A stretch of 63,332 bases of DNA, the filler included, from Globobulimina sp. (Eukaryota), in assembly GCA_003354225.1 (NCBI GenBank). It is 28 parts of 28 records of this genome, joined end to end, with 100 filler letters (N's around TTAATTAATTAA, not from the genome) between each part and the next. Parts side by side here need not be neighbours in the genome. Positions count along the whole stretch, not along the records: positions 49,848 to 52,012 come from PIVH01008504.1; 27 more parts are not named here. One strand, given 5' to 3'. The notes beneath the pieces were generated by a model. The model ran no database searches, was not told where the DNA came from, and saw nothing but the letters and a program-made list of their open reading frames with translations. Numbering within the stretch: position 1 is the first letter of the stretch; every line of letters begins with the position of its first letter. The translations under genes and the position numbers were made by a program. Below, piece by piece: positions 4,646 through 52,012 of the stretch.

Positions 4646-5149
4646 TCACCGCAGCCGAAATTTTGTCGCCTTACGCTTTATTTGTGGCACACGGTCTGAC
4701 GACCAGGGGGCGGTAGGGGACATTGTTAAAAATGCCAGGGCGACGAGAACTGCGTCGTAGTTCACGCGCCATCCGACAAAGTCTCGCCAAGCCTGGTCCC
4801 GGTCAGCTTTCAGGGGAACGCCTTCCGCTTCCATTTCAGCGCAAGCAGCGTCAAATTCAGATCGGGAGATGCTAATAGGGTCATCTGATTTGGGGTTAGA
4901 GTCATAAGAAATTTGAAGATAGTCAGCAATGCTGCGCAAAGCGAGGAATCCGGAGCGAATACACAAGTTGGCTTGCGCATCGCGGGGGATGTCAAGGGTT
5001 GAGGCGGCTAAAGCAGCGCCATCCAGCACGGCTCCGGCGGCTATAGCCCATGATTGGTGCGGGTGGGGTGAGCGAAAGAATATCAACGCGGCCAATGAGG
5101 TATGGCTCTCTTCCAACTCCGTAAACCAGATTTCCCAGGTTTTTTTAAG
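4646..5149 (-). CDS. Bacterial protein fragment, resembling the C-terminal region of bacterial potassium-channel-family proteins
   Basis: Clearly more GC-rich than the rest of the window. The EESHTSL..L.FFRSP...QSW..AAGAVLD and AWRDF.GWRVNYD motifs are recalled from Chloroflexi/Actinobacteria proteins. The frame is cut by TAG at the junction near 5150. Confidence 0.7.
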   Translation of the reverse strand, partial: LKKTWEIWFTELEESHTSLAALIFFRSPHPHQSWAIAAGAVLDGAALAASTLDIPRDAQANLCIRSGFLALRSIADYLQISYDSNPKSDDPISISRSEFDAACAEMEAEGVPLKADRDQAWRDFVGWRVNYDAVLVALAFLTMSPTAPWSSDRVPQIKRKATKFRLR

Positions 5150-27599: not shown

Positions 27600-28465
27600 A
27601 CTAATTTTCGGTACAATTTCTAACTCGGCCGATTTTGACACTAGACCCCTCGACATACCACTCAAATGAAAGCTCTCGAAAAGTTAGGAAGGTTGGAAAT
27701 GAAAAATTTCACATACGACCGAAATCCGGCCGCAAAACGCTGAAAACTGATTTTCGGTACAATTTCTAACTCGGCCGATTTTGACGCCAGACCCCTCGAT
27801 ATACCACTCAAATGAAAGCTCTCGAAAAGTTAGAAAGGCTGGAAATGAAAAGTTTCACATCCGACCGAAATCCGGGTCGAAAAACGCCGAAAACTGATTT
27901 TCGGCACAATTTATAACTCGGCCGATTTTGACGCTAGATCACTCGATATACCACTCAAATGAAAGCTATCGAAAAGTTAGGAAGGTTGGAAATGAAAAAT
28001 TTCACATCCGACCAAAATCCAGGCCGAAAAACGCCTTAAACTGATTTTCGACACAATTTCTAACTCGGCCGATTTTGACGCTAGATCCCTCGATATACCA
28101 CTCAAATGAAAGCTCTCGAAAAGTTAGGAAGGTTGGAAATGAAAAATTTCACATCCGACCGAAATCCGGGCCGAAAAACGCCTAAAACTGATTTTCGACA
28201 CAATTTCTAACTCGGCCGTTTTTGACGCTAGATCCCTCGATATACCACTCAAATGAAAGCTCTCGAAAAGTTAGGAGGGTTGGAAATGAAAAATTTCATA
28301 TCCGACCGAAATCCGAGCCGAAAAACGCCGAAAACTGATTTTCGGCACAATTTCTAAGTCAGCCAATTTTGACGTCAGATCCCTCGATATACCACTCAAA
28401 ATGAAGCTCTAGAGAAGTTAGGAAGGCTGGAAAAGGAAAATTTCAGACCGAAAAACGCCCAAAAC
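27600..28465 (+). repeat. Tandem array of about 5.9 x 147-bp units
   Basis: Unit starts (ACT(A/G)ATTTTCG) at 27600, 27746, 27893, 28040, 28187 and 28334. Core ATACCACTCAAATGAAAGCTCTCGAAAAGTTAGG. Confidence 0.97.
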
Positions 28466-49847: not shown

Positions 49848-49966
49848 ATGTAAATCAATATATATATATAGTCATATAGTCAGTATTCATTAATATAATT
49901 AATATAATTGATTTGTTGGTTGTTTTGTTTTGTTGTTTTTGTTGTCTCTTTCTTTTCATCATCAGC
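49848..49966 (+). repeat. 119-bp terminal direct repeat, copy 1
   Basis: Identical to 51894-52012, the other end of the same contig. Confidence 0.97.
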
Positions 49967-50096
49967 CCTTTCATAATCAAATACAACCTGTGATTATGGC
50001 ATACCGTATATTTTTATAACATGTTTTGTCTATAATTAGAAATTTGAACCTATTTACATTGCAGACCAGTGAGATCACAAAATTATTATTATTACC

Positions 50097-51005
50097 ATGC
50101 AAGAAACTGTACCACCAGAAATTGAGGAAAATGAAATGAGACAAAAACAAGAAAGTACAGAACAGCTTCAATTATGTCCAATACCAACAACATTTGATGA
50201 TTTTATCGGTACAGAGTTGAGCATTGAGGAGAAACTAAGATTACGAAACGATTTATTAACGTTACCACCAACTAAATTAGCGCAAGTTATGTGCGTGTTA
50301 CGAAAAGCACAACCACAAAATATTAAAGTTAAGTAATTTTATTTTTGTTTATTTGGTATCTTTCTAACTAAAATTAATCATAAACAGCAACATGGTGATG
50401 AATTAGAAATTGATTTGAAGAATTTAAATACTAAGACCTTAAGACATTTACAGCATCATATTACGAGTGTATTTACAGCATTAAATATTAATCAACCACC
50501 AGCTGCAGCACCTTTTGTGTCGCCAGCTATATTACAATCAATGTATAACGATCAAACGTTTATAGTTCAACCCAATGGCAATGTACAGCAACAACCAATC
50601 TACAGCCAACATCATAATCATAATCACCATAATTATCGCAAACCACGGCAAAGACGCCAAAGACGCAAAGATATTTTAGACAAAAATCAAAGAGAAATTA
50701 GTGACGCAGACAAAGCAGAAATGACAAATATTTGCAACAAAGTGGGTATTCAACAAGGTATGAATATTTCCACTCAATTATATGGTTTTGATGAACATGT
50801 TGCCGTTTATCGCAAATTATTGCAAATCATCGCAGAGCAAAATGTAAATGATCAAAATAAAATGATTGAGAACTTAGGAACTAACAAATTGAGAGATATT
50901 AAAACTAAGCTGGCGAGTTGTGGCAGAGTTGGAAGAAAAAGTGAAATGATGCTTGGCATCAAAAAGGAATTACCGAACTTAATGCACAATTATACAGATA
51001 ATTAG
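50097..51005 (+). CDS. ET (extra-terminal/NET) domain protein with SAP-like C-terminus (intron 50328-50387)
   Basis: LSIEEKLRLRNDLLTLPPTKLAQVMCVLRK...|...DELEIDLKNLNTKTLRHL matches the BET/TAF14 ET consensus. C-terminal NLGTNKLRDIKTKL...GRKSEMM is SAP-like. Confidence 0.8.
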
Positions 51006-51119
51006 AAATTGTAATTATTTAAACGTAATATTAATTTTATTTTTGTTTAAGTATATATTAAATCTTGAAATCTTGATATATATTATATATATATATACTG
51101 AATCAGTGTAATTTCGTGT

Positions 51120-51739
51120 GTACAGTGATGTATCGGATAAGATGAAGACGGTGTGATCAAAATATTGGTATGATCATGGTATGATCAAATATTTTTTTTG
51201 GTATGATCATGGTTGTGATTACAATATAATACAGCTTGCAATTTGTAGCTTAACATCACATAAACTGGTACAACAATGTGGTCATTGGATTACAAACTGG
51301 ATATTTTGTTACAATGTGCATTATGTGCCAACCAATCAGCACGTACACAATACTATGGTTCGCAGGCTGTAAATGAATATTTTTTATAATTTTCTGTTTA
51401 TATGCCACGATGTGATTTATAATTTTCGTGTTTTACAGAAGAAAAATGACGGCAGCGCTGCAACAGCATGCTCTCGTTATGAATTATTCGATGCTGTGAC
51501 GAGAAATGGCAGTACTTCATCCTATACAAAGTTTATGACAGCAGCAATCAGTTTGTAGTCTCGTTGCTTATCCTCCAAGTATTTATCAGCGGGGAGCTAG
51601 AGCGAAAAATAATTAATTTAAATGACGTAATTTGCGGCAGATTTGTAGTTATGAAAACAGATTTGCGGATGTCTTTGTATCTTGTTTGAAATTATGGTAC
51701 AGTGATGTATCGGATAAGATGAAGACGGTGTGATCAAAA
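51120..51739 (+). repeat. 43-bp direct repeat pair (51120-51162, 51697-51739)
   Basis: GTACAGTGATGTATCGGATAAGATGAAGACGGTGTGATCAAAA occurs twice. Confidence 0.93.
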
Positions 51740-51893
51740 ATTTACATATTGGTAATATTTAAAGGGGAACATGTCCGGTCATATTGGTAATATTGGTAAT
51801 ATTTTATTTTGGTAATTAAATGCATTAAAATTTACATGCAGAGCATGGGATTGTCATATGGTTATAAGTACTCCATATGGTCATATGGTTATA

Positions 51894-52012
51894 ATGTAAA
51901 TCAATATATATATATAGTCATATAGTCAGTATTCATTAATATAATTAATATAATTGATTTGTTGGTTGTTTTGTTTTGTTGTTTTTGTTGTCTCTTTCTT
52001 TTCATCATCAGC
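51894..52012 (+). repeat. 119-bp terminal direct repeat, copy 2
   Basis: Identical to 49848-49966. Confidence 0.97.

Follow-up and report, generated by a model that had tools for sequence, protein, structure and literature searches.

Small circles held to chromatin are best known from selfish nuclear plasmids such as the yeast 2-micron circle and from viral episomes with tethers such as LANA, which binds host ET domains and carries none itself. Multi-k de Bruijn assemblers, too, are known to produce loops that have an exact terminal overlap and are entered through an edge sharing that overlap length. Here we analyze such a contig from Globobulimina sp. (assembly GCA_003354225.1): PIVH01008504.1, hereafter C8504, at positions 49848-52012 of a 63,332-nt window of 28 length-sorted contigs with spacers between them. 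A preliminary description had proposed a circle or tandem unit carrying one gene with an ET domain and a SAP-like fold, and had offered as explanations a self-tethering nuclear plasmid, an extrachromosomal gene or a collapsed tandem array. We find C8504 to be an assembly loop connected to C624, a contig rich in genes, and lean modestly towards a local head-to-tail duplication of a spliced nuclear gene, collapsed by the short-read assembler. All that it has in common with the 2-micron circle and LANA is the notion of a small circle with a chromatin tether; its ET gene, in contrast, connects to a chromosomal contig, and we found no gene for replication or partition.

Terminal overlap and entry into the loop

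As noted before us, the first and last 119 nt of C8504 are identical (100%), and their spacing of 2,046 nt defines a 2,046-nt unit; no other of the 28 window contigs has a terminal overlap of this kind. The 119-mer, termed B, also forms the final 119 bases of C624 (5,334 nt), which carries genes for an M14 peptidase and a C2-domain protein as well as a third gene, gene X. The 3′ 23-mer of B has exactly three exact matches: both C8504 ends and the last bases of C624. C8504 is broken exactly where C624 and the loop meet, whereas an isolated circle could open anywhere. One other contig among 40 examined (C8134; 2,217 nt) closes on itself, with an overlap of 109 nt, which fits a multi-k assembler.

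Six public runs carry words of the unit, and the comparison covers four of them, all as contigs. Run X1, which may be the source sample, covers the intron and the non-coding DNA and shows zero differences to the gene. Its record 1 (1,150 nt; depth 11.4), the first 324 nt of which would correspond to C624, runs unbranched through the copied gene X end (segment A), the 20 nt that follow it in C624, and B, to position 50587. C8504 is therefore not a closed cycle free of chromosomal entry or exit, because C624 shares B and X1 record 1 crosses in; the linear DNA order is gene X end, 119-mer, ET gene. No exit contig into a downstream flank was found among 40 of the 47 scored candidates, nor by an exact 19-mer search. 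A linear copy must leave the unit somewhere, and probably does so through a dispersed repeat.

The closing junction and its possible origins

A second junction leads from a repeat, 1.9 kb further downstream, back into the final 66 nt of gene X. This gene (C624:3643-5202; 519 aa) matches no Pfam family and has 11 database homologs, which are 45-71% identical and in which the C-terminus is conserved; one of them is labelled Bolivina argentea. At the junction, the 20 nt of C624 are replaced by a 19-nt variant, v2, which re-copies 15 nt from 27 nt upstream. Since nine of the 11 homologs end in -PD, as does C624's copy, the C624 version is ancestral and v2 derived. Such a derived sequence sets C8504 apart from ordinary assembler loops and implies a real or chimeric molecule, not merely two flanking repeats. 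The junction repeats the left flank head to tail, with A (66 nt) and B (119 nt) both matching the C624 end. A v2 21-mer and a copy-specific 19-mer occur once each in the assembly, both on C8504, and neither A nor B lies on any contig other than C8504 and C624 (three of three candidates checked). In runs X2 and X6, records containing A lead on into the C624 version, or one close to it, followed by B; the 119-mer is therefore largely the gene X 3′ untranslated end. X2 record 8, which we interpret as a gene-X transcript, stops at 49936.

Repeat homology ends at 51816 and gene X homology begins at 51809, an overlap of 8 nt. A breakpoint that interrupts both a repeat and a gene end where the two share microhomology, together with a templated patch close by, is in keeping with template switching or microhomology end joining and does not look like a purpose-built replicon. 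These two features recall microhomology-mediated tandem duplications and extrachromosomal circular DNA (eccDNA) formed by alternative end joining (a-EJ), theta-mediated end joining (TMEJ) or break-induced replication mediated by microhomology (MMBIR), from which C8504 differs in that its patch lies 58 nt away from the breakpoint rather than at it; they do not tell linear from circular forms. The coordinates are collected in Table 1.

Table 1 Features of C8504, in window positions
Feature	Position	Strand	Description
B, copy 1	49848..49966	+	119-mer; node common to C624 3′ end; largely gene X 3′ untranslated end
Exon 1	50097..50327	+	77 codons; first part of ET domain
Intron	50328..50387	+	60-nt GT..AG, in frame, one stop codon
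Exon 2	50388..51005	+	Rest of ET domain with acidic stretch, linker, basic tract, C-terminal domain, stop
Arg/Lys-rich tract	50637..50669	+	Candidate nuclear localization signal (NLS) or DNA-binding tail, from sequence; similar tract in Bolivina homolog
Unnamed helical domain	50670..51002	+	~110 aa; last half (~50832-50990) SAP/HEH-like in model
Dispersed repeat end, copy 1	51121..51176	+	Starts directly 3′ of a TA; putative Tc1/mariner-like end
Non-coding stretch	51209..51621	+	413 nt, 87% identity to contig C32694
Dispersed repeat, copy 2	51698..51816	+	Cut within element at closing junction
Breakpoint	51809..51816	+	8-nt microhomology, 7/8 alike, between repeat and gene X end
A	51809..51874	+	Copy of gene X's last 66 coding nt (C624:5130-5195, 98%)
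v2	51875..51893	+	19-nt variant; replaces C624's 20 nt with gene X last codon and stop
B, copy 2	51894..52012	+	Terminal overlap; identity to copy 1

Run X1 limits the abundance of this junction. Its last bin has a depth of 6.58, which equals 11.4 x 26/45 and therefore leaves v2 without cover next to an entry path of 11.4. With a circle in high copy or a long array, v2 would be the principal path; X1 keeps C624's version. Assembler contigs drop minor or equal bubbles, so that an equal-depth junction could be merged away, and X1 bounds the junction rather than excluding it. X1 contigs made of the unit only have a mean depth of 15.7, as against a predicted 11.4 with a single copy, 13.7 with two copies and 16.3 with ten; depth is thus compatible with 1 to 10 copies and does not fix the number. 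The closing junction is not deeper in X1 than the edges leading in, so the cycle is not dominant there in DomCycle terms and resembles that method's ‘phantom’ or non-dominant cycles (PMC9104695).

For the duplication that we somewhat prefer, a replication or repair template switch at the 8-nt microhomology would have copied ~2 kb head to tail, and a further slip would have replaced the gene X stop codon with the 19-nt templated patch, leaving a second complete ET gene with a short upstream region. The assembler would then have broken the path at the meeting point of C624 and the loop, giving an overlap of k length (119 nt). This reading comes closest to the collapsed tandem array, the best fitting of the three earlier options, although with probably only about two copies. 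Excision or copying of the chromosomal segment, closed by microhomology end joining into a minority by-product eccDNA with no replication system of its own, would give the same graph shape. Its junction is likewise not dominant in X1, the unit holds a whole gene, and two papers report microhomology at eccDNA junctions (PMC11879418) and endoreplication and degradation of nuclear DNA in Foraminifera (PMC11606643). We nevertheless consider such a circle unlikely: v2, as a second and separate change, points to a molecule with a past, depth leans slightly above one copy, and the overlap is the sole direct sign of circularity.

Somewhat less likely again is a laboratory chimera, made by template switching in whole-genome amplification or library building and kept by the assembler. 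The junction is absent from the X1 contigs and from all listed joints, and its breakpoint, within a repeat and a gene end, is arbitrary; yet two switches within 90 nt resemble, in our judgement, repair more than amplification, and the library type is not on record. That A, v2 and B derive from a dispersed partial duplicate elsewhere, misjoined to the unit through similar repeat copies, we hold to be improbable: the junction does sit in a family of dozens of copies with depth in the hundreds, but its two diagnostic words are unique to C8504, and among the three candidates checked no contig besides C624 shares A or B. The self-tethering plasmid or selfish minicircle fares worst. It would explain a complete gene of tether-like architecture on a self-closing contig, but the chromosomal entry edge, B as largely a gene X 3′ end, the junction through repeat and gene end, the retention of C624's version in X1, foraminiferal homologs and chromosomal relatives of the ET gene, non-coding DNA that is host repeat, and the lack of a second open reading frame >71 aa in the unit together make it very improbable.

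The ET gene and its protein

The ET gene is an ordinary nuclear gene, spliced and conserved. Its two exons encode 282 aa plus a stop, bearing out the earlier call of a complete intron-containing gene: contigs of X2, X5 and X6, from three studies, cover the exons and skip the intron, and alignment to two homologs is gap-free once the intron is removed. We read these contigs as RNA, although none is on record as such. Compared with the diverged X6, at least 32 coding differences fall in 30 codons, 14 of them synonymous and 16 not; among the differences listed, the ratio of nonsynonymous to synonymous differences per site (pN/pS) is ~0.28 overall (154 synonymous, 629 nonsynonymous sites) and, within the C-terminal domain, ~0.13 (7 in 51 versus 4 in 219). 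X2 and X5 have in common a rearranged linker allele at 50573-50625 and three substitutions, absent from X1 and the assembly; X1 and X2 bear the same sample code despite this allele difference.

The ET domain, read through the intron, matches Pfam BET (PF17035; E=3e-8; 34.1 bits against a cut-off of 24.5), and no bromodomain or YEATS domain matches at E<=1, as the preliminary description had it. An acidic stretch between ET helices 2 and 3 aligns with that of BRD4, with three of four alternating acidic positions kept when we map them by the spacing given in PMC13373324. The protein thus resembles the BET family (BRD2/3/4, Bdf1) in an ET domain above the Pfam cut-off with its acidic stretch, but differs in having no bromodomain and an unnamed C-terminal domain instead. 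Two Bolivina argentea proteins, P0002 and P0003, have the same architecture at 55% and 40% identity; P0002 gives no bromodomain match at E<=0.05, and a Bolivina homolog matches BRD4 ET structures (E=4e-8). The genome to which C8504 belongs holds a separate gene with both a bromodomain and an ET domain, and also an ET gene without a bromodomain (57% identical over 99 aa), which lies midway along a gene-rich contig of 8 kb.

Besides the basic NLS-like tract, which is present, the earlier description had named a SAP-like helix pair. The whole ~110-aa domain weakly resembles the DEK pseudo-SAP/SAP domain in profile and fold, so that ‘SAP-like’ is, for a modelled structure, fair as a resemblance and not as family membership. 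Identity to DEK and to SAP/HEH domains (Ku70, PIAS1, FAN1, T4 endonuclease VII) is 13-16%, and Pfam returned no match for the C-terminal domain: none of nine domain family members matches SAP (PF02037) at E<=1, C8504 is not among the 46 SAP matches in the genome, and DEK_C, carried by three other contigs, does not match the ET protein. The unnamed domain recurs with bromo, SET and C2H2 domains, and all four labelled carriers are foraminifera (18 looked up). It is also the C-terminal part of P0047 (953 aa), a transposase that is weakly MULE-like, and transposons may have spread it.

We predict the protein to be an acetylation-independent chromatin adaptor. Its ET domain would recognize basic-hydrophobic motifs in chromatin regulators, and the basic tract and SAP/DEK-like domain would replace bromodomains in holding on to DNA or nucleosomes. 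A second ET gene without a bromodomain (C102:1318-2076), apparently intronless, has a C-terminus that is homeodomain-like by eye, with no Pfam homeodomain match at E<=0.05; the ET domain may have been shuffled onto different DNA-binding modules. On C26351, a tiny ET/AHD-like frame of 73 aa adjoins a thymidylate synthase (107-325 and 343-993), and this compact layout suggests a giant-virus fragment.

Non-coding DNA and implications

The half of the unit outside the ET gene is, as first described, non-coding and repeat-rich: no stop-to-stop frame in it exceeds 71 aa, Rfam gives no match at E<=1, and repeats dispersed through the genome are present. The repeat family, which has at least two subfamilies, ends sharply right after a TA in 17 of the 18 ends found (19 loci). 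A TA at the element end is a Tc1/mariner-type signature, and this repeat is, judging by its sequence, probably a non-autonomous DNA transposon; no inverted partner end was seen in the 19 loci, most of them short. Elsewhere, a 147-nt tandem repeat occupies window positions 27600-28445 (5.8 copies, 92% alike), and, judged by eye, frames at 4646-5149 and in contig L028 look bacterial amid the eukaryotic contigs; other organisms may be represented in the assembly too.

Assembly features like this loop are of a known kind; the circle is probably ordinary, and it cautions against reading k-length overlaps as plasmids. The lasting result is the protein, in which an ET domain without bromodomains is fused to an unnamed domain, a pairing that is a new variant of ET proteins. 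Title-level literature searches, which are no proof of absence, found no description of a foraminiferal chromatin toolkit or of this pairing. In yeast, the ET domain contributes more to the transcriptional function of BET proteins than the bromodomains do (PMC13373324), which would make a natural ET-only adaptor useful as a test case. A bolder scenario, which we regard as a long shot, has foraminifera shedding gene-sized circles during genome amplification, with the C8504 circle raising ET gene dose at one life stage and perhaps tethering itself, and the DEK/SAP-like domain reading nucleosomes directly. Should such junctions prove to be eccDNA in vivo, they would offer a handle on foraminiferal genome amplification and breakdown.
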